Notes under the pieces: model-generated
What the model was told of the DNA's origin: nothing
Database searches by the model: none
The model's input: the letters and a program-made list of their open reading frames with translations, nothing else
Program-made: the position numbers and the translations under genes
Assembly: GCA_017409785.1 (NCBI GenBank)
Contig: JAFQSD010000004.1
Span: 130,910 to 194,909, forward strand
Source: Bacilli bacterium
GTDB lineage: Bacteria > Bacillota_I > Bacilli_A > RF39 > UBA660
Direction of reading: 5' to 3'
DNA length: 64,000 nucleotides
Shown: piece after piece, positions 21,079 to 45,536 of the stretch
How positions within the stretch are numbered: position 1 is the stretch's first letter
How the letters are laid out: every line of letters begins with the position of its first letter

Positions 21079-22470
21079 ATGAATGAAAATATATTTGATA
21101 AGTTAGACTTTGGTGCATTTCGTCCGTTACTAGACAACGATGATATTACCGATATTTCATATAGTAATGGGGGACAAATATGGATACGTTCTCTAACTCA
21201 AGGATCCCTAAGAGTAGAAATCGATGGTGCAACTCCAGAATTCGTTGAAAAACTAGCATTTCAATGTTCCAACGTTATGGGAACAACCTTCAATAATGCT
21301 AAGCCATTCTTAGATGCTGAATCTGCTGAGTTACGTATGAACTTCGTTCACCAATCAATTGCGACAAATGGAATTGCCTTAGTTATTCGTAAAACTCCAG
21401 CAAAAATCCGTTTGGAAAAAGAAAAATTGATTAAAGATGACTACTTCACAAGAGATATACATGACTTACTAATTAAATGTGTTCAAGGACACTGTAATGT
21501 CATGGTAGCAGGAGAAACTGGTTCCGGAAAAACAGAGTTCGTTAAGTACTTAGCCAGTCATACAAAAACAAGTGAAAAAATTATTACAATCGAAGATACA
21601 TTGGAACTTCACTTAGACAGAATCTTCCCACAAAGAGATATTGTTTCAATGAAGACCAACAATGTAGCAAGTTACTCAGATGTATTAGTTACTTGTATGC
21701 GTCAGAATCCAAAATGGATTCTACTTTCCGAAGTACGTAGTGCAGAAGCGGTTTCTGCAGTACGTAACTCAATTTCATCAGGACACAACATTTTATCTAC
21801 AATCCACGCTGACAAAGCATCAGCTATTCCATATCGTCTATATTCATTAATGGAAACTGACTTAGATGTACATCAATTCTTATCAACAATTTATCGTTAT
21901 ATTCAATTAGGTGTACATATTAAAGCTTACTACAGTAAAGAAAGAGGAAAATTCCATCGTGAATTAGATGAAGTGTGTGAATTCTATGTAGATGATGATA
22001 ATGTTCCACAATCTAGAATAATTTATCAAAAAATATTTGGTAAAAATCCAGTAATGAGAAAACCAAGTGATCATTTACTTCAATTCTTAGAAAATCAAAA
22101 TATTGATGTAAGTGCTATTGTTGATAAATTACCTGATGATATGCCATTTAAAGAACAAGAAGAAATTAAGTTAGAAAATGATCAAGACAATCAAACAACT
22201 GCTCAACCAGAAGCAACAAGTGAAACACCAGCAATAGAAAACAAACCAGTAGAAGAGCCAAAATTGGTTGAAGAAAAAAAAGAAGTAGTACAACCAGAAC
22301 AACCAACATTGCAACCACTTAATGAATCACCTCAACCAACACAACCTGCTCCTCAATTAGTTGCACAACCAAGCGAGCCAGTACAACAAGTAACACAACA
22401 ACCTGTACAACAACCAGCTCAACCGCAAGTACAACAACCAGCAGTTACTAAATTAGATAGTCTATCATAA
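21079..22470 (+). CDS. cpaF: CpaF/TadA-type (VirB11 superfamily) secretion ATPase with a Pro/Gln-rich C-terminal extension.
   Basis: Walker A motif VMVAGETGSGKTEF, Walker B/Asp box ITIEDTLEL, His box STIHADKA, and WILLSEVRSAEA. The C-terminal ~100 aa are QP/PQ-rich low complexity. Confidence 0.8.
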   Translation: MNENIFDKLDFGAFRPLLDNDDITDISYSNGGQIWIRSLTQGSLRVEIDGATPEFVEKLAFQCSNVMGTTFNNAKPFLDAESAELRMNFVHQSIATNGIALVIRKTPAKIRLEKEKLIKDDYFTRDIHDLLIKCVQGHCNVMVAGETGSGKTEFVKYLASHTKTSEKIITIEDTLELHLDRIFPQRDIVSMKTNNVASYSDVLVTCMRQNPKWILLSEVRSAEAVSAVRNSISSGHNILSTIHADKASAIPYRLYSLMETDLDVHQFLSTIYRYIQLGVHIKAYYSKERGKFHRELDEVCEFYVDDDNVPQSRIIYQKIFGKNPVMRKPSDHLLQFLENQNIDVSAIVDKLPDDMPFKEQEEIKLENDQDNQTTAQPEATSETPAIENKPVEEPKLVEEKKEVVQPEQPTLQPLNESPQPTQPAPQLVAQPSEPVQQVTQQPVQQPAQPQVQQPAVTKLDSLS

Positions 22471-24239: not shown

Positions 24240-24271
24240 TAAATTATGATAACGAAAGGATGGGATAATAA

Positions 24272-24439
24272 ATGAAAGATGCGACAGGTGAATTAAACTT
24301 AACAGTAATCACATTAGTAGCTATCGCTGCAGTTATTGGATTCTTCTGGGTAATGTGGCCAAATATTCAAAATGCCTTAAATACTCAATGGTCTAATATC
24401 AGTAGTGGAGGACCTGCTACAATCATAGTAGAAAGATAA
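24272..24439 (+). CDS. flp: 55-aa Flp/pilin-like small hydrophobic protein, absent from the ORF track.
   Basis: MKDATGELNLTVITLVAIAAVIGFFWVMWPNIQNALNTQWSNISSGGPATIIVER: a short polar leader ending in Gly, then a hydrophobic helix. AAGGATGGG RBS and its own promoter. It has no E at +5, so it is not a canonical G/XXXXEY Flp. Confidence 0.4.
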   Translation: MKDATGELNLTVITLVAIAAVIGFFWVMWPNIQNALNTQWSNISSGGPATIIVER

Positions 24440-24458
24440 CAAAAAGAGGGTGTTTTAA

Positions 24459-24914
24459 ATGCGTGATGCTTTTGGAGGAGTTGCCAACTTAGTTATTATA
24501 GTTGTATTCCTTACTTTAGTTTCTGGATATTTAGCGTTTAACGTTAACTATACCAAAGCATTCAGAGTTAAGAATAAAATAATTTCTTTATATGAACAAT
24601 ATGAAGGAGAACAATGTTACCACAACGATACAAGTGAATGTAATATTAAAATTCGTGACTATATGAATGCACTTGGATACGATGCTCCATATCTAAATCT
24701 AGAAGGATACAATTGTTATTATGGATATTGTGCAAAAAAATTTGAAACTGAAAAAGTAGATGACAGCGTAACGGGTGACACTAAGAAAAAAGCGTATTAC
24801 AACATTGTAACGCAAATAAATATTGATATTCCTATTATTAATAAGATACTACCGGGATTGAAAATATTTCAAATAGCCGGTGATACAAAACCAATCGTAA
24901 TTGGAATTGGCTAA
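24459..24914 (+). CDS. TadE-like pseudopilin (putative minor pilin).
   Basis: N-terminus MRDAFGGVANLVIIVVFLTLVSGYLAF: a short leader with GG then a hydrophobic helix. Cys-containing extracellular part. AGAGGGTG RBS. Confidence 0.35.
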   Translation: MRDAFGGVANLVIIVVFLTLVSGYLAFNVNYTKAFRVKNKIISLYEQYEGEQCYHNDTSECNIKIRDYMNALGYDAPYLNLEGYNCYYGYCAKKFETEKVDDSVTGDTKKKAYYNIVTQINIDIPIINKILPGLKIFQIAGDTKPIVIGIG

Positions 24915-24931
24915 AAAGAGGGTGATACTGA

Positions 24932-26002
24932 GTGAACGTAATAGTTTCAAATGAACAACAAAGTCAAACAGCTAATTTAGATGTCGATATAATTAAAAGT
25001 ATTACTGGAGCATATAGTTCAATTGAACTAGTAGAAATGTTTAAGAATTTCTTCTACAGTAAAATGGTTTTAGATGTAACATCTATTAAAAATTATCAAA
25101 ATATCTTAGAATATAAAACATTAGCTGATGGATTAGATCCAGATAAAATTATTTTCTTTATTCCAGAAGGAAGTAGTTTATGTACACCTAACTTTCTAGC
25201 TAAACTAGTAACGTTGGGAATATATAATTTCACAACTAATATAGATGGAGTAAAATATTTATTAAAAAAATCAAACACATTTAATGATGTAGCTCACATT
25301 CAACAAATGGGCGGTGGTGTTATTGAAGAACTTCAACAACCACCACAACCAGACCCTGCGGAACAAGGGGCTCAAACTCAACAAGGAACTTTTGTAGCTC
25401 CGGCACATCATGTTCAAGTTCAGCAAGGAAGTATGGCTAGAACAATAAAAATTGGTGTACGTAATGTTACAGACCATGCAGGAGCAACAAGTTTGATATA
25501 TATGTTCAAAAAAGAACTTACATCAGTATTTGGTGAAAGTAACGTTGTTGCAATAGAAATTAATAAAAATGATTTTCAATTCTATAATGATAAGAATATG
25601 ATATCAACAACAACTAATGACATAAAGACAGTTATTGAAAGATATAATGGAGTATCTGTACTGTTAATAGATTTAAATGATTTTGAAGATAACACAATTT
25701 GTGATGATGTTCTATATTTATTAGAGCCAAGTACTTTAAAATTAAATAAGTTAATTAGAAAGAATAAACATATTTTTGGTAAAATAAAAGATAAAAAAAT
25801 TGTATTCAATCAAAGTTTATTAACTAGTAAAGATATAAGTGAGTTAGAATACGAAGCGGGAATCAAATCCTTCTTTAATCTACCTCCAGTTAATGATAGA
25901 AAGAAAAACGAAATAGTAACAGAATTACTTGCAAAACTTGGATTATTACAAATTACAGGTGGCAATAATTCTGGTAAAATATTTGGTCTATTTAGACGTT
26001 AA
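24932..26002 (+). CDS. TadZ/CpaE-like protein: a pseudo-receiver N-domain plus a ParA/MinD-like domain with a degenerate P-loop.
   Basis: GTG start with AAGAGGGTGA RBS. The second half has IKIGVRNVTDHAGATSLIYMF where ParA has KGGVGKTT, and VLLIDLND is a Walker-B-like box. Confidence 0.35.
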   Translation: MNVIVSNEQQSQTANLDVDIIKSITGAYSSIELVEMFKNFFYSKMVLDVTSIKNYQNILEYKTLADGLDPDKIIFFIPEGSSLCTPNFLAKLVTLGIYNFTTNIDGVKYLLKKSNTFNDVAHIQQMGGGVIEELQQPPQPDPAEQGAQTQQGTFVAPAHHVQVQQGSMARTIKIGVRNVTDHAGATSLIYMFKKELTSVFGESNVVAIEINKNDFQFYNDKNMISTTTNDIKTVIERYNGVSVLLIDLNDFEDNTICDDVLYLLEPSTLKLNKLIRKNKHIFGKIKDKKIVFNQSLLTSKDISELEYEAGIKSFFNLPPVNDRKKNEIVTELLAKLGLLQITGGNNSGKIFGLFRR

Positions 26003-26005
26003 TAT

Positions 26006-26034
26006 TTGACAAAAAAAATGATATAATGTATTAT
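26006..26034 (+). promoter_or_regulatory. Candidate sigma-A promoter (TTGACA-17-TATTAT) upstream of the pilin-like gene 26057.
   Basis: TTGACA at 26006-26011 and TATTAT at 26029-26034. An alternative -10 is TGATATAAT. Confidence 0.35.
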
Positions 26035-26056
26035 ATACATTGAAGGAGAGGTTTGT

Positions 26057-26377
26057 ATGTTAGAATTAGTTCAATTAGCTTCAGCATGTGGAGGATTAGA
26101 CCCACTAGTAAGTTTAGTTAAAAACGGGTTGTTCCCAATCGTATATATTATTATTCCAATTGCATTACTTATTTATGCAGTTATCGATTTTGGTAAGGCA
26201 GTAATTGCAAGTGATGAAAAAGAAGTTAAAGCAGCACAAAGTAGATTAATCAAACGTGCAATTTATGCAGCACTAATTTTCTTCGTAGTATTCCTAGTTA
26301 AAGCAATTATGGATGTAGTTGCTAAAGGTGGAACTGGAAATACTGGAGATTGGTGGTCTTGCTGGGAATCAGTATAA
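26057..26377 (+). CDS. Two-helix hairpin membrane protein, a VirB2/TrbC-like T4SS pilin candidate.
   Basis: The 106-aa sequence ...PIVYIIIPIALLIYAVIDFGKAVIASDEKEVKAAQSRLIKRAIYAALIFFVVFLVKAIMDVV... is paralogous to the N-domain of ORF 5244 and to the C-domain of ORF 26470. Confidence 0.45.
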   Translation: MLELVQLASACGGLDPLVSLVKNGLFPIVYIIIPIALLIYAVIDFGKAVIASDEKEVKAAQSRLIKRAIYAALIFFVVFLVKAIMDVVAKGGTGNTGDWWSCWESV

Positions 26378-26469
26378 TATAGACAGTAAAATAAAAAATA
26401 GTAAATAAATTGCTATTTTTTTTTTCTTCTGATATACTTAATATGTTATAATGTATTTGGAGTGATCTT

Positions 26470-27552
26470 ATGAAAAAAAAGCAACTATTTGGTTTGATTT
26501 TATTAATGTTAATAACATTATTTATACCAAATAACATCAATGCAAAAGAGAAAAAAGTAATTTGTGAATATCAATATAAAAACCAAGAATTAATTTATAC
26601 AATTGATAATAAAGTAATTCTTCCATTTGAGGATGGAAAAGACAATTGGTATCATGGACAAGATTTTAAAAATAACTATTTGAAAAATTCAAAAATAAAT
26701 AGCAATACTTATGTATGTCCAACAATAACAATTGAAGAATCTGATAGTTTTATAACAATATTTAATAATCCAAGAAGTGAAGATGAGTGTAGTGGAGTAT
26801 GTACAACTCTATCAGCAATAAACTATCAGTCAAGTAAAAATATAAATGTTAAAAAAGCAGTAGATACTACTGCTATTAGTAGTGTAGGAATTTATAATCA
26901 AGATAATTACTTTATTCCATATTTTAGATTATTAGAAGACGGTACAAAAGAATGGTCAGTTGATGGAATTAATTACAAGCCAGTAACTGAAAAAGTAGAA
27001 AATGACAAACTAGAAATAAGTTTAGATAAGTCATTAATTGAAGAAATTTATCAAGATAAAAACTTAAATAAAAATGTCACAATATATAGAAATGTAAAAA
27101 ATGATAATAACAAATATATCTATTTATTAGCAACACATAAAGTATCTGGTTACAATTTAAATGACGGACAAGAAACTAGTGCTAGAGCATATCATGCTGC
27201 ATATGGTGACCCAGACATAGATGAGTGGTTAGAAGATTATAATCAAAACCAAGATTGTTCTGGAGATAATAGTATTCTAGGAAGTTATAACGACCCTAAC
27301 TCAGTAGCATACTTCCTACAAATAATATTTAATTGGTTAAAACTTATTGGTCCATTTATAGTTATAGTTATGAGTGGTATAGATTTTGCTAAAGTAATCG
27401 TAATGGGTGATGATGATGGAATGAAGAAAGCTCAAACAAAATTAATCATCAGATTAATTCTTGCAGCATGTTTATTCTTCTTACCAGATTTAATCAAAGC
27501 ATTCTTAGACTTATTCAATATTACATCAAGTGGAATCTGTGGATTACAATAG
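26470..27552 (+). CDS. Secreted protein with a ~270-aa ectodomain fused to a C-terminal pilin-like two-helix domain.
   Basis: Signal peptide MKKKQLFGLILLMLITLFIPNNINA. The C-terminus GIDFAKVIVMGDDDGMKKAQTKLIIRLILAACLFFLPDLIKAFLDLF matches the ORF 26057 family. Confidence 0.45.
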   Translation: MKKKQLFGLILLMLITLFIPNNINAKEKKVICEYQYKNQELIYTIDNKVILPFEDGKDNWYHGQDFKNNYLKNSKINSNTYVCPTITIEESDSFITIFNNPRSEDECSGVCTTLSAINYQSSKNINVKKAVDTTAISSVGIYNQDNYFIPYFRLLEDGTKEWSVDGINYKPVTEKVENDKLEISLDKSLIEEIYQDKNLNKNVTIYRNVKNDNNKYIYLLATHKVSGYNLNDGQETSARAYHAAYGDPDIDEWLEDYNQNQDCSGDNSILGSYNDPNSVAYFLQIIFNWLKLIGPFIVIVMSGIDFAKVIVMGDDDGMKKAQTKLIIRLILAACLFFLPDLIKAFLDLFNITSSGICGLQ

Positions 27553-27580: not shown

Positions 27581-29653
27581 ATGACAGATTATATGACAGC
27601 CAATACGATAAACGATCTATTCAGAAGTTTATTCGCATTATTAGATAGAGCAGCATATATGATGCTTGGATGGATGTATGAAATCTTGTTCAATGTAGCA
27701 AGTGCAGACATTTTTGCCAATGATACAGTTCAAAAATTTTATGGACGTATACAAATGATCATTGGTGTATTCATGCTATTCAAATTAGCTGTTTCAATTA
27801 TTCAAGGTATAATTAATCCTGATACTTTTACAGATAAAAAGTCAGGATTTTCGCACATAATTTCAAGAGTAGTTTTTGCTTTAATAATGTTAACCGTGTT
27901 AACTCCAATTAATATTCCAGGAGCAAGAAGTAGTTATGAAATTAATCTTAACAATAACGGATTATTATTCGGAACATTATATGAATTACAAGATAGAATT
28001 TTAGAAAATAATACATTAGGTAGATTAATATTAGGTACAAATGATGGAACTACTGGAAGTGGTAGTGGTGGTACAAATACAGCGCTAACGCAAGCTGAAA
28101 AGTTAAAAAAATCATCTAATATGTTTACCGCAACTATTCTTAAAGGATTCATTAGAATCAATATGAAAGAGTCTGGCGGAATGGATGAAACAAATCCAGA
28201 TGATAGAGTTTGTGACTATATTGATCAAGAAGTACTTGATGTATATGCAGATTTAGAAACAAGTCCAAATCAATTATTATCATTAGTTAATGCTAGCTGT
28301 GAATATCAAGGAAATGATGGATTCTTCGATACAATGGCAGCATTCTTTACAAGATTATTTACAGGTGATAGATACGTATTTGCATATATGCCAATTATCT
28401 CAACAATTGTAGCAGCCGTATTTATCTATATTTTACTAGGAGAAATAATTACAATTGCAATTCGTTCAATAAAACTTGCAGTATTAAGACTTTTAGCACC
28501 AATCCCAATTATTAGTTATATTGATCCAAAATCAGAAAAAGATGGTGCATTTGCTTCATGGACTAAATCATTAACATCAACTTATTTAGAATTATTTATC
28601 CATTTAGCAGTAATTTATTTCGTAATATTCTTAATCCAAGACATGATTGTTAATGGATTAGTAATCAATACAGGAACAGGTGTTATTGGAGTAATATCAT
28701 GTATCTTCATCTGGATAGGATTATTCTTCTTCGTAAAACAAGCACCTAAGTTCATTAAAGATATCCTTGGAGTAAAAGGTGGAAGTTCAAATGTTGGACT
28801 TGCCGGATTACTTGGAGGAACAGCAATGCTTGCTGGCGGTGGAGGAATGTCAGGATTTGCTCTTGGAGCAATGCAAGGTTTCGATGCTGCAGTACAAGGT
28901 AATAATCAAGGAAAAGCAGCACCACTTGGTGCAATTTGGACACAAAATAGCAATAAAATGGCCCAAATCAGAACTGGAGACAAAGATGCTCAAGGTGGAT
29001 TATGGGGACAAGCAATGGACCGTTTCAACTACGATACACGTGAAGCTCAAGCTAGAAGACTTGGAATCGGTTCAAACGATGTTGCCGATGCTAAATACAT
29101 TAAAGATCAACGTGAAGCTGAAGCAAATAATGCTAAACGTAACCTAGACTTTGCTGCACGTGAAGTAGAATATGCAAAAGCTGAAATGGAAGCTGCAAGA
29201 TACGAACTTGATAGAACAGCTGAAGGTTCAACAGAACGTACATCTGCAGAAGCTAGATATAGAGCTGCTCAATCTAGATATGCAGATGCTCAGACAGGAT
29301 ATACAACAGCATATACACAAAACGAAGCATACCAAGAAGCATATGGAAAAGCTTCATCTGCATACGAAAAAATGGATAAAGACAGAGCTCAAATGGGTGT
29401 TGGTCCACGTATCAGTGATAAACGTGGAGATCGTGCAACTTATAGATCACCACATAAAGCAGATGGTACATACACTCCATACACAGCTGATGAAACAGGA
29501 AGAAATGCACCAAGAAGTGAAGATGATATTAAAGGAACAATTACAGGACATAGTAATGACCTTAAAAACTTCAGTGGTACAACAGATGACTCTGGTATCG
29601 GTTCTATGGGTGGAGGAGCCCGTGGTGGTGGACCAGGACCAGGACGTCCATAA
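27581..29653 (+). CDS. VirB6/TrbL-like polytopic T4SS channel protein with a long hydrophilic C-terminal tail.
   Basis: At least 6 TM segments with large loops (TcpH/ConG-like). The C-terminal ~250 aa are A/Q/R/Y/E-rich coiled coil ending in GGGARGGGPGPGRP. Confidence 0.55.
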   Translation: MTDYMTANTINDLFRSLFALLDRAAYMMLGWMYEILFNVASADIFANDTVQKFYGRIQMIIGVFMLFKLAVSIIQGIINPDTFTDKKSGFSHIISRVVFALIMLTVLTPINIPGARSSYEINLNNNGLLFGTLYELQDRILENNTLGRLILGTNDGTTGSGSGGTNTALTQAEKLKKSSNMFTATILKGFIRINMKESGGMDETNPDDRVCDYIDQEVLDVYADLETSPNQLLSLVNASCEYQGNDGFFDTMAAFFTRLFTGDRYVFAYMPIISTIVAAVFIYILLGEIITIAIRSIKLAVLRLLAPIPIISYIDPKSEKDGAFASWTKSLTSTYLELFIHLAVIYFVIFLIQDMIVNGLVINTGTGVIGVISCIFIWIGLFFFVKQAPKFIKDILGVKGGSSNVGLAGLLGGTAMLAGGGGMSGFALGAMQGFDAAVQGNNQGKAAPLGAIWTQNSNKMAQIRTGDKDAQGGLWGQAMDRFNYDTREAQARRLGIGSNDVADAKYIKDQREAEANNAKRNLDFAAREVEYAKAEMEAARYELDRTAEGSTERTSAEARYRAAQSRYADAQTGYTTAYTQNEAYQEAYGKASSAYEKMDKDRAQMGVGPRISDKRGDRATYRSPHKADGTYTPYTADETGRNAPRSEDDIKGTITGHSNDLKNFSGTTDDSGIGSMGGGARGGGPGPGRP

Positions 29654-29676: not shown

Positions 29677-30003
29677 GTGCGTAACTATTTAATTCCTGCA
29701 AACACAAAAAGAGGGAAATTAATACTAGGAATGTTTAAACCGTTTGATTTAGTGTTATTTGGAACAGGAATTCTTATTACATTTATATTTCTAGCATTCA
29801 TGCCGCTAAGCTCAACACTTGTAACAATACTTGTGTTGAGCCCAGCGCTTGTTACTGGATTCTTAGTTTTACCTGTACCTTATTATCACAACATACTAAA
29901 TATCCTAATTGAAATGTATGAATTTATAACAACAAATCAAACATATAGATGGAAAGGTTGGTGTTTTAGAAGTGGCGAAAAAGTCATCAAAAAACGTAAG
30001 TAG
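29677..30003 (+). CDS. Small 2-TM membrane protein (VirB3-like candidate).
   Basis: GTG start with AAGAGGAG RBS. 108 aa with two hydrophobic helices, immediately upstream of the VirB4 ORFs. Its 3' end overlaps ORF 29972 by 32 nt. Confidence 0.35.
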   Translation: MRNYLIPANTKRGKLILGMFKPFDLVLFGTGILITFIFLAFMPLSSTLVTILVLSPALVTGFLVLPVPYYHNILNILIEMYEFITTNQTYRWKGWCFRSGEKVIKKRK

Positions 30004-30532
30004 TGGTTATACTGAAGATTGGCTACCAGTCCGTGGTATTCAAAATAACATGATAATTACTAGAGATAATTACAAAGTAACAGGAGTTAAAATATCTCCA
30101 AAAAATATTTTTATCTTGGACCCAATTGCTCAAGATAATATGTTAATAAGTTTAAAGAATTTTTATAACACAATTGATTTTGAATTCTGGCTAGTAGTTG
30201 CTGATAGACCGGTAGACATCTCTGTATATCTATCACAAATGCAATTACTATATAATGAAGCACATACACCAGCAATTAGAAAATTAATTATGCAAGATAT
30301 TAATAAAGGACATACTTTTATCAATAATAGTATTGTTGATACTGAATATTATTTCTTATTCAAGTCAAAAGACCCTGATCTTTTAGCCAAAAGAGTAAGA
30401 ATGATGATTAATGGTCTTGCATCATGCGGATTAGCTGCTGCTCAAGCAAGTAATTCGGATTTAAGAATAGTATTAGATAACTTCCTAAACGGAGGAAGTA
30501 CAACAGAGTTTGGGGTGGTGATGCCAGTATGA
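29972..30532 (+). CDS. VirB4 N-terminal domain-like protein (a separate ORF coupled to the VirB4 ATPase).
   Basis: 186 aa, GTG start. Its stop overlaps the ATG of the VirB4 ATPase (ATGA at 30529-30532). Hydrophilic, with no TM segment. Confidence 0.4.
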   Translation: MAKKSSKNVSSGYTEDWLPVRGIQNNMIITRDNYKVTGVKISPKNIFILDPIAQDNMLISLKNFYNTIDFEFWLVVADRPVDISVYLSQMQLLYNEAHTPAIRKLIMQDINKGHTFINNSIVDTEYYFLFKSKDPDLLAKRVRMMINGLASCGLAAAQASNSDLRIVLDNFLNGGSTTEFGVVMPV

Positions 30533-32319
30533 GTACCGGATTAAGAAGTCAATTAGCTCCAAAAGGGCTACATTTCTCACCAAGTGAGTTTTTCATAAGT
30601 GATAAGTATGCAACTATTTTAACAGTTGTATCATTTCCAAAATACATAACACCAGGTTATTTATCATCATTAACAAATATGGCAGGAATTAAAATTGTTA
30701 TTAAACATATTCCTGTTCCATATCAAGATATGGTTAAGATGTTAAATAAAGAAGTAGCAGATTTAAAAGAAAAATATCGTAATGAAAGAGACCAAACTAT
30801 TCGTGAAAGATTAAGACAAGATGCAGAAAGTTTGGAATACTTCACATCAATGATTGCAGGAAGTCAAGCAAGAAACTTCGATTTCCAAATGCATATCATG
30901 ATTGCTGCAAATACAAAAGAAGAATTAGAATTAAAGAAAATGAATGTTAAAAACTACTTAGATGCAATGGAATTAAGAGCAATTTCCCTACGTTTTGAAC
31001 AAGAAAAAGTTCTTAAATCAATGTTACCAATTTTCCCTGCTCAAGATATTGAACAAAGAATTGGAACACCAATTCCATCAGTAACAGTAGCAGCAATGTA
31101 TCCATTTATTTTCGATAGTATTAAAGACCCAGGATTATCAACACTACTTGGAGTTGATTTCTCTGGAGGAGTAATTCTATTTAATCAATTCTTATATAAA
31201 ATAAGAAAAGAACATAATAGAAATAATGCTAATATGATTATCTTAGGAACATCTGGTTCCGGAAAATCAACAGCAGCAAAATTATTACTAAGAACACATA
31301 TTAGAAATGGATGTCAAATTGTTATTATCGACCCAGAAGATGAATTTAGAGAAATTACTAGATCATTTGGTGGAGATACAGTAGATATTGGTAAAGGTGG
31401 AGAATTTGGTTTAATCAACCCACTAGAAGTAATCTTCGATGCTGATGAAGAAGAAATTAAACAAGGTATGGGATACACAGTATTAAATAGAACATTAAAC
31501 TTCTTAAAAGGTTTTATGAAATACTATAATCCATCAATTGCACAAGATGTTTTAGCAATGTTTAGTGATGTAGTTCAAGATACATATAAACGTTTTGGAA
31601 TTGACTTTGAAACAGATTTCTCAAACTTCACATCAAAAGATTTCCCAGTTTTCTCAGATGTTTATGCAACAATCAAAGGAAGACTACTTTCTATGACAGA
31701 TCAAACTAAAGAAAGAGATATCATGGAAAGACTTGAATTAGAAGTAAGACCAATCGTTAAAGAATTAAGATTCTACTTCGATGGTCATACAACATTACCA
31801 AGAGATAGTGATTTCATGGTATTTAATATTAAAGAATTAATGAATAGTGATGCAAATATTAGAAATGCCTTATTATTCAACGTCTTAAAATATGCTTGGG
31901 GAATGTGTTTAGACCCAAGTGTAGATACAGTATTATTAGTTGATGAAGCACACGTATTAATGAGTAGCAGAAACCAACAAGGTTCAGAATTCTTAGCTCA
32001 AGTACAAAGACGTGCTCGTAAATATAACACAGGAACTATTATTATTACTCAACAACCAAGTGACTTCGCTGATGAGGCTGTAATCACTGATGGTAAAGCA
32101 ATTTTCGATAATGCTTCTTACTATCTAGTAATGGGATTAAAGAAACAAGCAGTTGAAGATTTATCAAGATTAATAGACCTAAATGAAAATGAAAAAGAAA
32201 GTATCAAACGTTATTCTCAAGGAGAAGCACTATTCGTTTGTGGAAGCAGACGTATGAGAATTAACGTAGTAGTTACAAAAGAAGAATTAGATTCATTCGG
32301 CTCAGGCGGAGGATTCTAA
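30529..32319 (+). CDS. virB4: VirB4/TrbE/CagE-family T4SS ATPase (Gram-positive ConE/TcpF/PrgJ-like).
   Basis: Walker A motif MIILGTSGSGKST and Walker B motif VLLVDEAHVLM. N-terminal YATILTVVSFPKYITPGYLSSL. Confidence 0.8.
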   Translation: MSTGLRSQLAPKGLHFSPSEFFISDKYATILTVVSFPKYITPGYLSSLTNMAGIKIVIKHIPVPYQDMVKMLNKEVADLKEKYRNERDQTIRERLRQDAESLEYFTSMIAGSQARNFDFQMHIMIAANTKEELELKKMNVKNYLDAMELRAISLRFEQEKVLKSMLPIFPAQDIEQRIGTPIPSVTVAAMYPFIFDSIKDPGLSTLLGVDFSGGVILFNQFLYKIRKEHNRNNANMIILGTSGSGKSTAAKLLLRTHIRNGCQIVIIDPEDEFREITRSFGGDTVDIGKGGEFGLINPLEVIFDADEEEIKQGMGYTVLNRTLNFLKGFMKYYNPSIAQDVLAMFSDVVQDTYKRFGIDFETDFSNFTSKDFPVFSDVYATIKGRLLSMTDQTKERDIMERLELEVRPIVKELRFYFDGHTTLPRDSDFMVFNIKELMNSDANIRNALLFNVLKYAWGMCLDPSVDTVLLVDEAHVLMSSRNQQGSEFLAQVQRRARKYNTGTIIITQQPSDFADEAVITDGKAIFDNASYYLVMGLKKQAVEDLSRLIDLNENEKESIKRYSQGEALFVCGSRRMRINVVVTKEELDSFGSGGGF

Positions 32320-32346: not shown

Positions 32347-34668
32347 ATGGCATACGAAGCAAATAGAGAAGGCGACCAAAGAGAAAACCAAATGTCTCAA
32401 GATGAACGCAACATTCAAAATAATGCAAACAACATAAGAAACGCAGCTGATGTTGCCATGGCTTCCGGTAACCCTTATGCAATGGCTGCAGGAGCAGCAG
32501 TAAAAGCTGCAGATAAACTTACAGGTGGGAAAAGTACTGAAATGGCAGGAAAAGCCCTAAATCAAGCAAATAAAATGGCTCCAGGAGGAAATCAAGTACA
32601 AAACTCATTAAATAAAATGAGCGAAAGTGGAGCAAGTGATAAAATCGGACAAGCAGCAGCCATAAAAAACGGAATGAGTAATGGTGGATCTGGAGGTGCA
32701 GATGCTGCTTCAAAAGCTGGAGAAACAGCAAATCCTACAGATAAAGCATCTTCAACTTCAAGTTCATCATCTGATTCATCAGGTGACGGATTAGGTAAAG
32801 GCTTTGGTGGTGGAAGAAAACCAAAAAATTGGTTAGATGATGGCTCTGATGAAAATAATGAGCCACAAGAGCCAACAGATACAATGTTTGAATTCCAAAT
32901 GAAACCAGAAACTAAAGCAATTATGTTGCTAGTTGCACCATTAGCAGGAATATTACTATTATTCTTTGCGATATCTGGTGCTGTAGGTGGAGGAGTTGCA
33001 GACTTCAATGATGCTCTAGGAGCAAGTGGAGCATCAGGTGGAGAAACAGGAAACATTGTATTCACAGCATCAGACCCTGATGCCCAAGCATTCTACGAAA
33101 GAATTAATAATGTAAAATTAAATATGCAAGCTAGTGGTAAAAGCGTAGACGTATTAAAAGTCGTAGCTGTTTACCACGTATTAAACGTAAATAATAATAA
33201 TTATGATTATAAATATATGACAGAGTCAGTTATCACAGATATTGCCAATGCAATGTTTAGTGGTAATGTCTATGATGAAACAACATTCAAGTTTAATTTA
33301 ACTAATGACATTTTCTATAAGCACTTCCCAAGAACAACTCAAAGTAAACGTGAATTAATGACTGAAGATGTATTTGATTATATTGATAGATATTACAGTT
33401 TCATTGGTACCGAAGGTTATGGTTGTGCTGCAGCTGGAGCATGTAATTACGATATTAAAGGTTTTTATATACCAGGCGCTGGAAATATCTCTAAACAAAT
33501 GCAAATATCAAATTTAATGGTTAGATTAATGGAATGTGGAAGTCCATATGGAAATGGAACATATGGAACACCAATTGACCAAGATATGGTTCCATTCGAA
33601 GAGTATGTAGCAGGAGTTGCATACGCAGAAGTTGGTCCAAGTGCTCACATTGAAGTACTAAAAGCCCAAATGGTTATGGCAAGAAGCTTTGCTCTTGCAA
33701 GACCAACAGGAATGGGAAATGCTCTTGGTAAAAAACTAGAACAAGAAAATAATCAATGGGTATTACAAATTTCATCATGCGTAGCCGACCAAGTATTCTG
33801 TAACATCAATGAAGGTTGTTCTTTCATGGGTGGTGGAGATGGTCAGGGTGGAATATGTCGAAGTGGACACGTTGCAGGAGCAGTAAGAACAAGAGATGCT
33901 TTAGCAGCGGACCATCAATTACGTACAGCAATGGCTGCAACAGCCGGAGAAGTATTAGTAAATGATCAAGGATATATTATCCAAACAGGCTATTTATCAA
34001 CAGAACAAAATCTTATGTCAAGCCTTGCTAATCAAGGAATGAATTATAAACAAATTCTGTTACAAGTATATAACTCAGGAAACAGAAATTATGGTGCAGC
34101 AGATATTCAAAAAATGGCTTGTAATACAGCAGGTTCTGCAAACTGTGGAACAGCATCATCTGGACCATACGCAAGTTGGAAACAATATGAAGGTCCATGG
34201 ACAAATGTAATCTTAGGTAATAGTGGAAAAACAATTAGACAAATCGGATGTTTAGCAACATCAGTTTCAATATTAATTGCTAAGAGTGGAGTTCCAACTG
34301 TCTTAGGAGATAACTTCAACCCAGGTACATTCGTTGAATATCTAAGTCAAAATGGTGGATTTGTAAGTGGAGGAAACTTCGTATGGGCATCAGCCTCAAA
34401 AGTAGCACCATCATTCCAATTCGTTGGACGAGCTTACGTTTCAGGATATACTAAAAATCAAAAATTACAAAAACTTACAGAACTAATGAATCAAGGATAT
34501 TATGTAGTTGCAGAAGTAAAAGGTAATACTGGACAACACTGGGTAGCAATAGATGCCATCGCTGGACAAACAATCATTATGATGGACCCTGGAAGTAGTA
34601 GCACAGATATGTGGGCTCAATATGATTGGAGAAATACAAGTACTTTTGCATACTTTAAAGCGGGGTAA
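32347..34668 (+). CDS. Cell-wall hydrolase (VirB1 analog): a disordered G/S/A-rich N-terminus, a TM segment, a SpoIID/LytB-like domain, and a C-terminal CHAP-like Cys/His peptidase domain.
   Basis: EEYVAGVAYAEVGPSAHIEVLKAQMVMARSFALAR matches the SpoIID motif. The C-terminus has RQIGCLATSVSILIAKSG and GQHWVAIDAI (CHAP-like Cys and His). TM segment AIMLLVAPLAGILLLFFAISGAV. Confidence 0.55.
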   Translation: MAYEANREGDQRENQMSQDERNIQNNANNIRNAADVAMASGNPYAMAAGAAVKAADKLTGGKSTEMAGKALNQANKMAPGGNQVQNSLNKMSESGASDKIGQAAAIKNGMSNGGSGGADAASKAGETANPTDKASSTSSSSSDSSGDGLGKGFGGGRKPKNWLDDGSDENNEPQEPTDTMFEFQMKPETKAIMLLVAPLAGILLLFFAISGAVGGGVADFNDALGASGASGGETGNIVFTASDPDAQAFYERINNVKLNMQASGKSVDVLKVVAVYHVLNVNNNNYDYKYMTESVITDIANAMFSGNVYDETTFKFNLTNDIFYKHFPRTTQSKRELMTEDVFDYIDRYYSFIGTEGYGCAAAGACNYDIKGFYIPGAGNISKQMQISNLMVRLMECGSPYGNGTYGTPIDQDMVPFEEYVAGVAYAEVGPSAHIEVLKAQMVMARSFALARPTGMGNALGKKLEQENNQWVLQISSCVADQVFCNINEGCSFMGGGDGQGGICRSGHVAGAVRTRDALAADHQLRTAMAATAGEVLVNDQGYIIQTGYLSTEQNLMSSLANQGMNYKQILLQVYNSGNRNYGAADIQKMACNTAGSANCGTASSGPYASWKQYEGPWTNVILGNSGKTIRQIGCLATSVSILIAKSGVPTVLGDNFNPGTFVEYLSQNGGFVSGGNFVWASASKVAPSFQFVGRAYVSGYTKNQKLQKLTELMNQGYYVVAEVKGNTGQHWVAIDAIAGQTIIMMDPGSSSTDMWAQYDWRNTSTFAYFKAG

Positions 34669-35513: not shown

Positions 35514-37853
35514 ATGAAACTTAAATTTCGTGCAGACCCAGAAGATTGGATGATATTTGGTATATTTGCAGTTGCATTATTGTACGTTATTGCAATTGGT
35601 GTAGTAAATCTAGCATCATTCGCATCAGATGGAACCTTATCAGGGTTAAATCCTTTTCCTGCGTTTAGCACAGAACATATAACAACAACATTAGTATTAT
35701 ATTTCTTAACACTTGGTGGTCTATTCGTAAGTGTTAGTTCATACTTTTTTGAAAGAGAAAAAGGTTTTGGTCTAACAGCCGATAAAAAAGACAAAGGATA
35801 TTCAAGATGGGCTAAAGATAAAGAAATCAAAGAAGAATTAAAATGTGTTAAAATTCAACAAAAAAATTCTAAAGCCGCAGGTATTCCAATTATCTTGAAT
35901 AAAGAAGAAATGTGGGTAGACGACAGTGAATACCACTCATTAGTAATCGGAGCTACTGGGTCAGGTAAAACACAAGGTATTGTATTCCCACAAGTTAATA
36001 GTTTAGCTAAAGCTAGAGAGTCAATGATTATTACCGACCCTAAAGGTGAAATCTATGAACAAACAAGTTTAATGTTACGAAAAAGAGGATATCAAATCTT
36101 ACTTTTAAACTTCCGTGATCCACAAAACGGTAATGCATGGAATCCATTATCATTACCTTATAAAATGTACAAATCAGGAAATCAAGATAAAGCAATCGAG
36201 TTATTAGACGACTTAGCATTGAACATTCTATATGATGATTCAAATAAAAATGCTGACCCATTCTGGGAGAAAACATCAGCAGACTACTTTTCTGGAGTAG
36301 CTCTAGGATTGTTTGAAGATGCTAAAGAATCAGAAATTAATATTAATAGTATTTCCTTAGCAACAACAGTTGGTGAAGAAAAATTTGGTGGTTCAACATA
36401 CATCAAAGAATACTTTGCAGCTAAAGACCAATCAAGTGCAGCTGCAATCAATGCATCAAGTACAATCATGGCACCATCAGAAACAAAAGGAAGTATCCTT
36501 TCAGTATTTAAACAAAAAGTTAAATTATTCGCATCACGTGAAAATTTAAGTGAAATGTTATCACATAGTGATATCGATTTAGAGAGTATTGGTGCAAGAC
36601 CAACTGCCGTATTCATCGTTATTCAAGATGAAAAGAAAACATATCACTCATTAGTAACAATTTTATTAAAGCAAATATATGAAACACTAATTTCTACAGC
36701 ACAAAAGAATGGTGGAAAACTACCAGTAAGAACTAACTTCATTCTAGATGAGTTTGCCAACATGCCACCATTAAAAGATGTTACAACAATGATTACTGCC
36801 GCACGTTCACGTAGAATTAGATTTACAATGATTATTCAAAACTTTGCACAATTAGATGGTACATATGGTAAAGATGATGCCGAAACAATCAGAGGTAACT
36901 GTGGTAACATAATTTACCTAATTACAACAGAACTTAAAGCCTTAGAAGAAATTTCAAAAATGTGTGGTGAAGTAAAATCTAAGAAAGATGATAAAACTGC
37001 CTCAACACCACTTGTTACAGTATCAGACTTACAACGTATGAAACAATATGAAACAGTAATATTAAGAATGCGTAAACAACCATTCAAAACAAAACTTACA
37101 CCAAACTGGCAATTAGATTGGGGAATAAAATATCCTAATGCCAAGTATCCAATACGTAAGAAAGTAGAAGTTGATACTTTTGATATTAAAGAGTTTGTTA
37201 AAGATCAAAAGAAGAAAAAGTTATTAGAAATGATGAATGGATCAGATGATGCTAAAAAAGAGGTTATGTCTAAACTACCTCCAGCAGATTTCATGAAAAA
37301 AGATCCACTTCCATTTGATAAACCTGCAGAAGCAGCAAGAATTCCTGACTTCTTAACAAGAGGGCCTATCGAACCAGAAGAAAGAAAAGTTATGGGTGGC
37401 GGAAGAGTATCTGCTCCAGCAAGACCACCAGTTTATGAAGAACCAATATCTAAACCACCAGTTGATGATGATTTGGGATTTGATGTAGACGAGTTAGTAA
37501 AGAAAATTGATGCTAAAATTGCTGAACTTGAAGAAGAAGAAAGACGCAATAAAGCAGGAGCAACTGCAACACCAGCAACTAAGCCACAACCAATTATCAA
37601 TAAGCCAGTTGCAGTACCTAAACAACAACCATTACCAACAGAGACACCAAGTTCTGATGGTGGCGCAGTTTCAAGTATTGATGAATTCTTAAGTAAAGCA
37701 CCAGTAGCTGAAACAACAATGCCAAAGATTAAACCTTTAGAAGAAAAAGTAGTCGAACCAATTAATAGTGTTGTCAAACCTAAAGACAACTTATCATTAT
37801 CAGATGAAGAAAATGATGATGATGATTTCTTTGATGACTTTTTTGATAATTAA
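35514..37853 (+). CDS. virD4: VirD4/TraG-family type IV coupling protein with a long disordered acidic C-terminal tail.
   Basis: Two N-terminal TM segments. Walker A motif VIGATGSGKTQG and Walker B motif NFILDEFANMPP. The C-terminal ~250 aa are P/A/K/E-rich and end in EENDDDDFFDDFFDN. Confidence 0.75.
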   Translation: MKLKFRADPEDWMIFGIFAVALLYVIAIGVVNLASFASDGTLSGLNPFPAFSTEHITTTLVLYFLTLGGLFVSVSSYFFEREKGFGLTADKKDKGYSRWAKDKEIKEELKCVKIQQKNSKAAGIPIILNKEEMWVDDSEYHSLVIGATGSGKTQGIVFPQVNSLAKARESMIITDPKGEIYEQTSLMLRKRGYQILLLNFRDPQNGNAWNPLSLPYKMYKSGNQDKAIELLDDLALNILYDDSNKNADPFWEKTSADYFSGVALGLFEDAKESEININSISLATTVGEEKFGGSTYIKEYFAAKDQSSAAAINASSTIMAPSETKGSILSVFKQKVKLFASRENLSEMLSHSDIDLESIGARPTAVFIVIQDEKKTYHSLVTILLKQIYETLISTAQKNGGKLPVRTNFILDEFANMPPLKDVTTMITAARSRRIRFTMIIQNFAQLDGTYGKDDAETIRGNCGNIIYLITTELKALEEISKMCGEVKSKKDDKTASTPLVTVSDLQRMKQYETVILRMRKQPFKTKLTPNWQLDWGIKYPNAKYPIRKKVEVDTFDIKEFVKDQKKKKLLEMMNGSDDAKKEVMSKLPPADFMKKDPLPFDKPAEAARIPDFLTRGPIEPEERKVMGGGRVSAPARPPVYEEPISKPPVDDDLGFDVDELVKKIDAKIAELEEEERRNKAGATATPATKPQPIINKPVAVPKQQPLPTETPSSDGGAVSSIDEFLSKAPVAETTMPKIKPLEEKVVEPINSVVKPKDNLSLSDEENDDDDFFDDFFDN

Positions 37854-39142: not shown

Positions 39143-39436
39143 ATGAATAGTATAGATATAGAAAAACTACTTGAACTTCTAAACAATAAATCAATAAATA
39201 TAATTGATATCAGAACAAAGTATGAGTATATGCTTAACCATATACCTACATCAAAAAATATTGATAAAATTCTTTTAAGAATAGCACCAGAAAAATATTT
39301 TAATTCTAAAGAAATATATTATATTTATTGTCAGTCAGGATATTCGAGTAAAGCCTTAGTTGAGTATTTAAACACACTAGGATATAATACTGTAAACATT
39401 AATGGTGGATATAATAATTACTTGTTAAGAAAATAG
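39143..39436 (+). CDS. Rhodanese-like domain protein.
   Basis: Active-site Cys in IYCQSGYSSKA. ATG at 39143 with a GAGGTGA RBS (the ORF-track start at 39134 is GTG). Confidence 0.6.
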   Translation: MNSIDIEKLLELLNNKSINIIDIRTKYEYMLNHIPTSKNIDKILLRIAPEKYFNSKEIYYIYCQSGYSSKALVEYLNTLGYNTVNINGGYNNYLLRK

Positions 39437-39470
39437 AATTATAATATAATAAAACAAGAAGGTGATAGTA

Positions 39471-40049
39471 GTGACAACACTTACTGAAATCATAGAAACC
39501 TGTACTGAATTAATCCAAAAAGGTGGTTTTTTAATGGGGTTCTTTCTAATTTTAATAGAAGCCTTTATCCCAATATTACCATTAGGAGCCTTTGTAACAT
39601 TAAACATTAATGCCTTTGGTACATTTCCAGGTTTACTTATCTCTTGGAGTGCTTCAGTAATTGGTAGTTACATTATGTATTTATTATGTTACTATGTATC
39701 AAATAAGATAATATATAAATTCATAAAAGAAAAAACAAAAGAAAAGATAATAGAAAAAACTACCCACTTTCAAAAAATTAAACTAACCTCATTAGTTTTG
39801 ATAATAACCTTACCATTTACACCTTCATGTTTTATTAATCTTCTTGCTGGTATATCAAACGTATCAAAAGAAAAATATATAATATCTCTCATAATAGGAA
39901 AAGTATTTAATATCATCTTTTGGGGATATATTGGTATGAGTTTAATTGAAAGTTTAACTAATATTAAAGCAATTATATTTATTATAATAATCTTATTAAT
40001 TGCTTATTTAATTTCAAAAATAATATCAAAAAAATTTAAAATTGACTAG
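39471..40049 (+). CDS. DedA/TVP38 family membrane protein.
   Basis: Multiple TM segments with a DedA-like GxxxM/GxxxG core (PILPLGAFVTLNINAFG). Start is ambiguous: GTG at 39462 or GTG at 39471 with an AAGGTGA RBS. Confidence 0.55.
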   Translation: MTTLTEIIETCTELIQKGGFLMGFFLILIEAFIPILPLGAFVTLNINAFGTFPGLLISWSASVIGSYIMYLLCYYVSNKIIYKFIKEKTKEKIIEKTTHFQKIKLTSLVLIITLPFTPSCFINLLAGISNVSKEKYIISLIIGKVFNIIFWGYIGMSLIESLTNIKAIIFIIIILLIAYLISKIISKKFKID

Positions 40050-40063
40050 AAAGGAAGAACTTT

Positions 40064-41146
40064 ATGGACTACATAATAATAATTTTATTAATAATAATTT
40101 TAATACTTGGAGTTATATCTCTATTTAAAAATATAAATGAAAGTAATATTACAGAACGTCTTGGTAAATTAGAACTAAGTATGATGAAAGAAATGGGAGA
40201 TTTCAAAACAGAGTTAAGTCGTAATATGAATAAAGACTTTACAGACCTAAATGAACAATTAGAACGAAGACTACTAGCAATTAATGAAAAAGTAAATACT
40301 CGTTTAGATGAAAACTTTGAAAAAACAAATAAAACATTTACAAATGTTATTGAGCGTTTATCAAAAATAGATGAAGCTCAAAAGAAAATAGAAACTTTAT
40401 CAACAGATATAGTAAGTCTACAAAGTATTTTAACTGATAAAAAAACTAGAGGTATCTTTGGAGAAGTAAATCTTAAACATATTCTTACAAGTGTTTTTGG
40501 TGAAAAAAATGATAATATATTCAGACTACAACATACCCTATCAACAGGAGTTATAGCTGACTCAGTTGTCTTTGCACCTGAACCTTTAGGAACAATTGCT
40601 ATTGATTCCAAATTCCCATTAGAGCACTATCAACTAATGGTTGATAAAAGCCTAACTCAAGATATGCGTGATAACTATGAAAAAATGTTTAAACAAGATA
40701 TGAAAAAACATATTGATGCTATCAGCAGCAAATATATAATACCTGGAGAAACAGCAGATCAAGCAATTTTATTCCTTCCAGCAGAAGCAATCTTTGCAGA
40801 AGTAAATGCATATCACCAAGATATAATAAATTATGCCTATAAAAAACGTGTATGGATAACATCACCAACTACCTTAATTTCAACACTTACTGTAGTAGAA
40901 ATGATTATTAAAAATATGGAACGAGATAAATATACATCTGTTATCCATGAAGAATTAAATAAATTAGGATTAGAATTTGCCAGATACAAAGAACGTTGGG
41001 ATAAACTATCTAAGAGTATCCAAACAGTAAATAAAGATGTAGAAAATGTTACAATAACTACTGATAAAATCTCTAAAAAATTCGAAGCAATTAATAAAGT
41101 TGAAGTAGAAGTAGTAAAACAATTAGAACTACATGAAGAAGAATAA
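40064..41146 (+). CDS. rmuC: DNA recombination protein RmuC.
   Basis: N-terminal TM segment, a coiled coil, and a C-terminal RmuC nuclease-like domain (RGIFGEVNLKHILTSVFGE...IDSKFPLEHY...TSPTTLISTL). Confidence 0.7.
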   Translation: MDYIIIILLIIILILGVISLFKNINESNITERLGKLELSMMKEMGDFKTELSRNMNKDFTDLNEQLERRLLAINEKVNTRLDENFEKTNKTFTNVIERLSKIDEAQKKIETLSTDIVSLQSILTDKKTRGIFGEVNLKHILTSVFGEKNDNIFRLQHTLSTGVIADSVVFAPEPLGTIAIDSKFPLEHYQLMVDKSLTQDMRDNYEKMFKQDMKKHIDAISSKYIIPGETADQAILFLPAEAIFAEVNAYHQDIINYAYKKRVWITSPTTLISTLTVVEMIIKNMERDKYTSVIHEELNKLGLEFARYKERWDKLSKSIQTVNKDVENVTITTDKISKKFEAINKVEVEVVKQLELHEEE

Positions 41147-41170
41147 GAAAGTTTTATACTTTCTTTTTTT
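41145..41170 (+). terminator. Rho-independent terminator after rmuC.
   Basis: AAGAAAGT-TTTAT-ACTTTCTT followed by a T-run. Confidence 0.6.
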
Positions 41171-41203
41171 GTATATAAAAAGATCTAGTGCATAAACTTT
41201 ATT

Positions 41204-41416
41204 ATGATATTAAAACTTATTTTAATAATGCTAGGATACATTTTAATGGTCTACGGAATATCATACATAATTATATACATAAATCTATTTTCATTTGGTT
41301 ATACTATAAAAGAATATTTTATGTTTTTATATACAACATTCGAGGGTTATTTACTTCCCTTAGGAATGATCATCGAAGTAATAGCATTAACTAAAAGAAA
41401 GGACAAAAGAAAATGA
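41204..41416 (+). CDS. Small 2-TM membrane protein (hypothetical).
   Basis: 70 aa and hydrophobic. Its stop overlaps the start of ORF 41413. No obvious RBS, so confidence is low. The alternative frame 41188-41394 was rejected. Confidence 0.3.
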   Translation: MILKLILIMLGYILMVYGISYIIIYINLFSFGYTIKEYFMFLYTTFEGYLLPLGMIIEVIALTKRKDKRK

Positions 41417-42057: not shown

Positions 42058-42064
42058 ACTACAA

Positions 42065-45528: not shown

Positions 45529-45536
45529 TAATAAAA

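Follow-up and report, generated by a model that had tools for sequence, protein, structure and literature searches.

We analyzed a 64-kb stretch of the genome of a Bacilli bacterium (contig JAFQSD010000004.1; hereafter "the window", whose numbering is used for all positions) that contains a VirB3/VirB4-type locus of a type IV secretion system (T4SS). The locus consists of three open reading frames (ORFs), which we call V, A, and B (Table 1). V encodes a small membrane protein resembling PrgI and VirB3, A encodes a TrsD-like protein, and B encodes a "short" VirB4 ATPase. No two of the genes share a frame; that of B is -1 with respect to A. The 3' end of V runs 32 nt into A (29972-30003), and the stop codon of A and the start codon of B share the sequence ATGA. 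A first-pass annotation of this DNA had presented VirB4 as two translationally coupled ORFs behind a VirB3-like protein, and had left three explanations for the boundary between A and B–a natural split, a frameshift pseudogene or sequencing indel, or programmed frameshifting. Its coordinates for the three genes and for both overlaps all match the ORF table and the raw sequence.

The window has a G+C content of about 29% and uses the standard genetic code: its long ORFs are free of breaks, TGG occurs 91 times, and the commonest stop codon is TAA. Prompted by the best match of the locus, which is to a Mycoplasma protein family, we considered genetic code 4 (TGA encoding tryptophan), and ruled it out since code 11 gives long ORFs and TGG encodes tryptophan. 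If TGA is nevertheless read as tryptophan, the A frame still ends at a TAA four codons further on, so the break between A and B is independent of the code table. Such a reading could not join A to B in any case, because they occupy different frames.

Both A and B are preceded by strong translation start signals. The Shine-Dalgarno-like site for A (AAAGGTTGGTG) has a calculated duplex energy with the 3' tail of 16S rRNA of -14.2 kcal/mol, a value equalled by 0.02% of 20-nt segments inside genes, and the site for B (GGGGTGGTGAT) pairs with the same anti-Shine-Dalgarno tail at -13.7 kcal/mol (equalled by 0.04% of in-gene segments). Gene starts in the window have a weaker median duplex energy of -11.6 kcal/mol. 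The B site is made of GGG and GTG codons, each of which accounts for 2.4% of the Gly or Val codons in this genome. Among relatives of the locus, the A start is in every case 16-38 nt upstream of the V stop codon, just past a conserved AAAGGTTGGTG that codes for WKGWC, and 6 nt upstream of the ATG of B there is a conserved motif, GGnACGGTGAT, whose GGTGAT part pairs with the 16S 3' tail.

Table 1. Coordinates of the V-A-B genes, their signals and motifs, the neighboring secretion genes, and a compared plasmid locus.
Feature	Position	Strand	Remarks
V: PrgI/VirB3-like small membrane protein	29677..30003	+	GTG start, 108 aa, TAG stop, 2 transmembrane segments
A: TrsD-like protein, probable detached first half of VirB4 N-terminal domain	29972..30532	+	GTG start, 186 aa, TGA stop 30530-30532
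B: "short" VirB4, second half of N-terminal domain + RecA-like ATPase domain	30529..32319	+	ATG start, 596 aa
A/B stop/start overlap ATGA	30529..30532	+	ORF table and raw sequence
Shine-Dalgarno-like site for A	29953..29963	+	Inside V 3' end
Shine-Dalgarno site for B	30512..30522	+	Inside A 3' end
Walker A, GTSGSGKS	31246..31269	+	B residues 240-247
Walker B, VLLVDE	31930..31947	+	B residues 468-473
TadA/VirB11-like secretion ATPase	21079..22470	+	
VirB6-like polytopic membrane protein, directly upstream of V	27581..29653	+	NCBIfam pLS20_p028 family, E 3e-10
Cell-wall hydrolase with SpoIID domain (VirB1-like role), directly downstream of B	32347..34668	+	
VirD4-type coupling protein, CD1115 family	35514..37853	+	NF045973, 306 bits (cut-off 250)
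pCP13 Pcp region, locus L088	NC_003042.1 5112-10219		PcpJ annotated hypothetical

Colinearity with fused VirB4 proteins

The ATPase identity of B is clear. It matches the Pfam families AAA_10, P-loop_TraG and DUF87, has Walker A and Walker B motifs (Table 1), and aligns to positions 295-891 of the NCBIfam profile NF045975 with an E-value of 5e-102. This profile, the best-scoring curated family for the locus, describes the VirB4 protein of the integrative and conjugative elements (ICEs) of Mycoplasma (CDS17, Mbov_0397 family). B also aligns end to end with three proteins encoded by plasmids: the DUF87 protein of pCT72, PcpB4 of pCP13, and TrsE of pSK41.

Protein A matches an earlier segment of the same profile, positions 92-276 of 894 (E 2e-14). 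Its recorded match to the Pfam TraC-like family PF26593 is weak, and for a 79%-identical orthologue the match reaches E <= 1e-5. The NCBIfam TrsD/TraD model NF041427 gave no match to A at E <= 1. By profile comparison A is related to TrsD of pSK41 with a probability of 92% (E 6e-7), and an A-like protein of pCT72 is an intermediate between the two, matching both TrsD (E 3e-10) and A (26% identity, E 2e-15). This pCT72 protein also matches the N-terminus of canonical VirB4 (TIGR00929, positions 3-136), and so links TrsD, the Mycoplasma profile and the canonical VirB4 N-terminus. In layout, too, A is of the TrsD/TraD type: it is a separate protein, within the range of about 180-230 aa, whose gene has a VirB3-like gene before it and a short virB4 after it. 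An AlphaFold2 model of A (mean predicted local distance difference test score 78.6) consists of a compact alpha/beta domain that ends in a disordered tail (residues 176-186), and its top 14 matches in the PDB are all TrwK, the VirB4 protein of R388. Hydropathy analysis found no transmembrane segment in either A or B.

For V we predict two transmembrane segments from hydropathy, at about residues 25-43 and 47-65. V agrees with the description of PrgI/VirB3 genes (PMC12857230) in being about 100 aa long, in having two transmembrane helices, and in being located directly upstream of the virB4 module and overlapping it. Four of nine V orthologues match the Pfam PrgI family PF12666 (best E 1e-5), and V shares an N-terminal YLIPxNxK motif with the PrgI-family protein of pCT72, to which its profile is related with a probability of 48%. 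A weak match to the fused Mycoplasma VirB4 profile covers positions 2-96 (E 0.05). The assignment of V as PrgI/VirB3-like, made from sequence comparisons, is thus probable on evidence that is mostly indirect.

When the proteins are concatenated they align colinearly with intact VirB4 proteins, a check that the first-pass annotation had proposed and that the locus passes. A+B gives a single high-scoring segment pair in BLASTP against each of two fused homologs, the 800-aa protein P0259 (query 15-781, subject 15-799) and the 839-aa protein P0265 (query 14-773, subject 31-835), and V+A+B matches positions 2-891 of the 894 in NF045975 in one stretch. A+B also aligns with the profile of the CD1110 family (positions 42-731). 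These are relationships of homology and not of family membership: V+A+B scores 406 bits and B alone 342 bits against NF045975, so V+A+B is not a member of that family because its cut-off is 590 bits, and the scores against NF045971 (CD1110-family VirB4-like ATPase) are 171-177 bits for a cut-off of 325. In its features A+B is a VirB4/TraC-type ATPase, with a C-terminal RecA-like domain containing Walker A and B motifs, a colinear N-terminal domain, and a genomic association with VirB6-, VirB3-, VirB1-, and VirD4-like genes. It departs from the usual form of VirB4 in one respect, being encoded by two ORFs (186 + 596 aa) rather than as a single polypeptide of about 800 aa.

The location of the cut can be placed by reference to the solved structure of the VirB4 C-terminal domain (PDB 4AG5), which aligns to residues 388-780 of A+B (E 5e-53). 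Since the C-terminal domain starts at about residue 388 and the cut is at residue 186, the cut falls in the middle of the N-terminal domain and not between the N- and C-terminal domains. The first-pass annotation had taken A for the usual VirB4 N-terminal domain, but A is just the first half of that domain and not the whole of it. In fused homologs the junction position is occupied by a variable insert of 20-30 residues between two conserved blocks, and the cut sits in this variable, disordered linker between two subdomains. There are other fused proteins–P0365 (996 aa) has PrgI, TraC-like and ATPase Pfam domains in one chain and is a full V-A-B fusion, and P0367 (1009 aa) combines TraC-like and ATPase domains–so the module is known in split, partly fused, and fully fused forms.

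Conservation of the split among relatives

A search with A found about 8,000 homologs, and nearly all of the best 120 are separate proteins of 182-207 aa. In 80 species-representative genomes of uncultured gut Bacilli, which are labelled variously as Bacilli, Tenericutes, Mollicutes, or "Mycoplasma sp. CAG", the three ORFs are arranged as in the window wherever the contig permits. The identity of A to its counterpart in the window ranges from 56% to 95% among these species-level relatives. To the 73 species-level genome loci that contain both A and B we added 41 metagenome loci, gathered by a scan with the coupling protein as the query; a metagenome scan with the 407-aa downstream protein as the query gave no match. 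The split is kept in all 114 loci, and A and B are fused in none of them.

The sequence of the junction is much less uniform than its existence. In 60 of the 114 loci the A and B genes overlap by ATGA and in 45 by TAATG, and the other nine, if the first start codon is called, have overlaps of 8, 11, 14, or 29 nt or a 1-nt spacer. The 14- and 29-nt overlaps are most likely 8-nt overlaps, which is what they become if the ATG nearest to the stop codon is taken. B is in the -1 frame relative to A in most relatives and in the +1 frame in about nine loci, and some junctions have spacers, of 1 nt in locus L058, 3 nt in pCT72 (leaving both genes in the same frame), 8 nt in L172, and 11 nt in L084. In L084, where A has only 30% identity to the A protein of the window, the cut is at the same place and its 11-nt spacer is accompanied by a GGGGG Shine-Dalgarno site.

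Two loci had unusual gene lengths. In L091 (1400-1502), B appeared to be shortened, to 443 aa after a 186-nt gap, but decay of the gene was ruled out because the gap is a run of Ns in the scaffold, and the true junction is an ordinary 8-nt overlap (ATGGCTAG). On an 891-bp contig (L085), the 233-aa A-like protein P0173 (32% identity) extends about 50 residues beyond the usual split, into the region equivalent to B; it could reflect another cut site, or an artefact of assembly or frameshifting.

All three genes are under purifying selection. In comparisons to six relatives, the ratio of nonsynonymous to synonymous substitution rates (dN/dS) is 0.11-0.29 for V, 0.03-0.19 for A, and 0.03-0.16 for B.

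These data bear on one alternative explanation, that a single virB4 gene has been broken by a 1-nt indel at about position 30530, as a frameshift pseudogene or as a sequencing or assembly error. In its favor, A and B are in adjacent frames and jointly make up a complete VirB4, and the VirB4 proteins described so far are mostly single chains of about 800 aa. But the 114 loci are all cut alike while differing in junction sequence, stop codon, and frame offset, both halves have dN/dS values of 0.03-0.19, and the ATG and Shine-Dalgarno site of B are conserved. Furthermore, an A protein of exactly the same sequence is present on 14 contigs that were assembled independently, no homopolymer run of five or more is present near the A/B junction, and conjugative plasmids of proven function have the same split. 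We regard this explanation as excluded for practical purposes.

A second alternative is programmed -1 frameshifting at the ATGA, and possibly also at the V/A overlap, to make a fused A-B or V-A-B protein like the VirB4 of Mycoplasma ICEs. It would account for the -1 frame of B in most relatives, and fused V-A-B proteins do exist in other lineages (the NF045975 family and P0365). We scanned for the slippery heptamers that the first-pass annotation had suggested looking for, and found no in-frame X XXY YYZ sequence in the 90 nt at the 3' end of A. Nor is the frame relation fixed, with about nine loci in +1 and spacers of 1, 3, 8, or 11 nt in others; in pCP13 a 2.1-kb topoisomerase gene stands between the two halves; and B always has its own start codon with a strong Shine-Dalgarno site. 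Recoding at this junction is accordingly very improbable. In summary, because the split is conserved, the junction varied, the selection purifying, the ribosome-binding sites separate, and the signals of error or recoding absent, the pseudogene or artefact is excluded and frameshifting is without support. Three cistrons that each initiate separately and are coupled in translation would be expected to have just such a layout.

We conclude that in this locus the VirB3/VirB4 module of a Gram-positive-type (MPF-FATA-like) T4SS has undergone a natural split, of ancient date, into three separately translated polypeptides, a conclusion that we hold with a probability of roughly 0.85. Of the options in the first-pass annotation it is the natural split that is borne out, by the 114 split loci with their varied junctions, the low dN/dS, and the genes' own start signals. 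The annotation's description of two coupled ORFs behind a VirB3-like protein also stands, the coupling itself being suggested by the overlaps and the Shine-Dalgarno sites. V, A, and B would each initiate at its own start yet be coupled to the preceding gene, and coupled translation would yield V, A, and B in roughly equimolar amounts. A would then bind in trans to the 200 N-terminal residues of B and so make the N-terminal domain of VirB4 complete again, and V may wrap this rebuilt domain and anchor it to the membrane beside VirB6. VirB3 is the precedent, as in the R388 structure it wraps the N-terminal domain of VirB4 at 1:1 stoichiometry (PMC9259494).

A different role for A is conceivable: it could have a common ancestry with the VirB4 N-terminus but have become an accessory factor in its own right, with a part in, say, assembly, regulation, or substrate handling, leaving B to work alone as a truncated VirB4. 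The separation of the A- and B-type genes in pCP13 and the weak similarity of A to canonical VirB4 are in keeping with this idea. On the other side, A and B exactly complement the fused proteins with nothing missing or duplicated, the V-A-B order and its translational coupling are almost always kept, and the corresponding segment of fused relatives runs on into the remainder of the N-terminal domain. We therefore consider an accessory role unlikely.

Several points nevertheless weigh against the reading of V-A-B as a naturally split module. The resemblance between A and canonical VirB4 is distant: a local Pfam-A scan of A alone gave no match, and the Foldseek TM-scores of the A model to TrwK are just 0.32-0.37 (E 1e-3 to 5e-2). 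V itself has no direct match to PrgI or another family, as only some of its orthologues do. We infer the assembly of A with B in trans from sequence comparison, and, judged in the same way, rare frameshifted A-B fusion products may occur. The split may have had one origin, or several at a permissive linker.

VirB4 is the signature protein by which type IV secretion systems are found and classified. In this large clade it is a protein of about 600 aa, and its N-terminal piece has been labelled "hypothetical", "TraC-like", or even "ATPase involved in DNA repair". Seeing V-A-B as one module should improve the annotation of gut Bacilli, of plasmids in Bacillus, Clostridium and Staphylococcus, and of Patescibacteria. 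It also gives TrsD/TraD-type proteins a testable role, as a detachable first subdomain of the VirB4 N-terminal domain, and the natural split marks a permissive cut site for structural and biochemical work. No new kind of system, and no recoding, is involved.

Chromosomal setting of the cluster

V-A-B is part of a cluster of about 26 kb (12575-39088) that also includes genes for Ig-like surface proteins, sortase B, a CpaB-like protein, the TadA/VirB11-like ATPase, the VirB6-like protein, the SpoIID-domain hydrolase, and the VirD4-type coupling protein of the CD1115 family (Table 1). An orthologue of the VirB6-like protein in locus L089 matches the Pfam family TrbL_4. Upstream of the VirB6-like gene is a 360-aa ORF (26470-27552) with a weak T4SS_pilin match (E 0.005), and several small ORFs of 55-151 aa are located between the Tad-like membrane proteins and the VirB6-like gene (about 24270-26400). 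We regard the 360-aa ORF and these small ORFs as candidate pilins. About 6 kb outside the cluster, amid housekeeping genes, a 289-aa ORF (5244-6113) has a T4SS_pilin-like N-terminus (E 2e-6) and, in addition, an NlpC/P60 hydrolase domain. At the right end of the window (61854-63040) there are 12 tRNA genes on the + strand, with no evident link to the T4SS cluster.

The cluster is flanked by housekeeping genes. On the left are genes for a dGTPase-like HD protein and GreA (9756-12242) and for U32 peptidases, and on the right (39143-48000) are genes for rhodanese, DedA, RmuC, Trp/Tyr-tRNA synthetase, trigger factor, and Lon. Synteny of the right flank extends to relatives whose coupling protein is just 55-86% identical. 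We found no relaxase or integrase match among the tested ORFs of the window, several of which have no match to any family. The locus thus differs from an ICE in having no relaxase or integrase match in the tested ORFs and a right flank that is conserved across species. Because of the housekeeping flanks, the conserved right flank, and the absence of a relaxase or integrase match, this T4SS-plus-Tad-like cluster looks chromosomally fixed and vertically inherited, and not like a typical ICE, which we offer as a lead since a novel relaxase is possible.

In L133, L151, L159, and other metagenome loci, we found a coupling protein (60-66% identity) with neither V/A/B nor the RmuC flank within 10 kb. 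The coupling protein is therefore found in other contexts too, which may be second copies or mobile elements.

A more speculative proposal, which we advance tentatively and think rather doubtful, is that the split VirB4 marks a chromosomally fixed, vertically inherited, relaxase-less T4SS-plus-Tad-like apparatus of reduced-genome gut Bacilli that is not an ICE and serves another purpose. If so, that purpose could be the transfer of chromosomal DNA in the manner of Mycoplasma, DNA uptake, or a contact-dependent reliance on other cells. The parallel would be with Patescibacteria, whose chromosomal PrgI-TrsD-VirB4 system is indispensable to the epibiotic lifestyle, and the TrsD-type split, with A assembling with B in trans, would be a shared and ancient hallmark of that class of machine.

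Known systems with related layouts

The V-A-B arrangement is not peculiar to this genome, but is the TrsC-TrsD-TrsE-type layout of known conjugative plasmids of Gram-positive bacteria. In pSK41 and pGO1 of Staphylococcus aureus, trsC-trsD-trsE likewise code in succession for a small membrane protein, a second protein of about 227 aa, and a DUF87 short VirB4 of about 672 aa, and in pSK41 the first two genes of the trio overlap as they do in the window. Residues 46-623 of pSK41 TrsE align to residues 12-586 of B with just 25% identity. Unlike the overlapping A and B, trsD and trsE of pSK41 are 14 nt apart, and pSK41 is a plasmid with a relaxase, whereas the locus in the window is chromosomal, with a TadA/CpaB-like module and no detected relaxase. 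The traC-traD-traE genes of pIP501 are presumably of the same type, judging from the NCBI family name "TrsD/TraD" alone. TrsD has been described as having remote homology to the N-terminal portion of VirB4 and as being associated with virB4, and in the pGO1 subclass of MPF-FATA systems it is listed without an assigned function (PMC12102498).

A tblastn search of A against plasmids gave matches in conjugative plasmids of the Bacillus cereus group, and we looked more closely at pCT72 of Bacillus thuringiensis. The gene order in pCT72 is the same as in the window, with a TrbL-like protein, a PrgI-family protein (111 aa), a hypothetical protein (227 aa), and a DUF87 protein (630 aa; 30% identical to B from end to end), followed here by an NlpC/P60 protein. 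Its A/B junction is different, with a 3-nt spacer that keeps both genes in the same frame. The proven conjugative plasmid pAW63, which we compared only through its published table, has the same series in coding sequences CDS12-11-10-9, and like the window it encodes a VirB11-like ATPase accompanied by two membrane proteins (PMC1196294); its 223-aa protein was annotated as an "ATPase involved in DNA repair" (PMC1196294). Across pAW63 and pCT72 the PrgI-family protein is 105-111 aa, the A-like protein 223-227 aa, and VirB4 630-645 aa, with a cell-wall hydrolase after it, and another part of the tra region encodes a VirB11/TadA-like ATPase accompanied by two membrane proteins. Unlike the locus in the window, these systems are plasmid-borne and have a MOBP relaxase.

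The Pcp locus of the Clostridium perfringens plasmid pCP13 (Table 1) resembles the window in having a VirB6-like protein of the pLS20_p028 family, a small protein (93 aa), PcpJ (214 aa), and PcpB4 (632 aa). A had no BLASTP match to PcpJ, and the profile comparison between them (probability 54%) is suggestive. PcpJ does match positions 95-279 of the Mycoplasma VirB4 profile (E 6e-8), and because this is the same region that A matches, we identify PcpJ as a detached N-terminal piece of VirB4. The difference from the window is that the 2.1-kb topoisomerase gene separates the PcpJ and PcpB4 genes, in the order PcpI, PcpJ, topoisomerase, PcpB4, so PcpJ and PcpB4 must act as separate proteins. The small pCP13 protein (DUF5592) was considered as a relative of V and rejected, since profile comparison found no relation and it is not detectably PrgI-like. 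A plasmid of C. estertheticum has the same trio.

Outside the phylum, a Parcubacteria contig (Patescibacteria, or Candidate Phyla Radiation) encodes PrgI, a TraC-like/TrsD protein of 219 aa, and a 611-aa VirB4. The T4SS of Patescibacteria resembles the locus in the window in being chromosomal and in belonging to bacteria with reduced genomes; what differs is the phylum and the junction, which has an 8-nt spacer and no overlap. We saw no Tad-like module in the Parcubacteria locus. The short VirB4 proteins of Patescibacteria are about 23% identical to the fused relative P0265. TrsD homologs are the most abundant T4SS component in Patescibacteria and are mostly beside virB4, and in Ca. S. epibionticum ML1 one TrsD homolog is essential (PMC12102498).

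The fused systems have the same module in fewer pieces. The VirB4 of Mycoplasma ICEs is one polypeptide of about 890 aa rather than three. In PrgI-PrgJ of pCF10 and in the classical VirB3-VirB4 pair (TrwM-TrwK of R388), a small VirB3-like gene with two transmembrane segments is directly upstream of virB4 and partly overlaps it (PMC12857230), as V does with its module, but PrgJ and TrwK are single polypeptides of about 800 aa.

A literature search for "split VirB4" found no description under that name and none showing colinearity; the nearest statement is in the TrsD literature. The word "split" is absent from a 2025 review of T4SS nomenclature, and a 2026 paper on pIP501 does not mention TraD. 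The split layout is thus already known from other systems, and what our analysis adds is to show explicitly that A and B together amount to one VirB4, cut at a linker and provided with conserved coupling signals.

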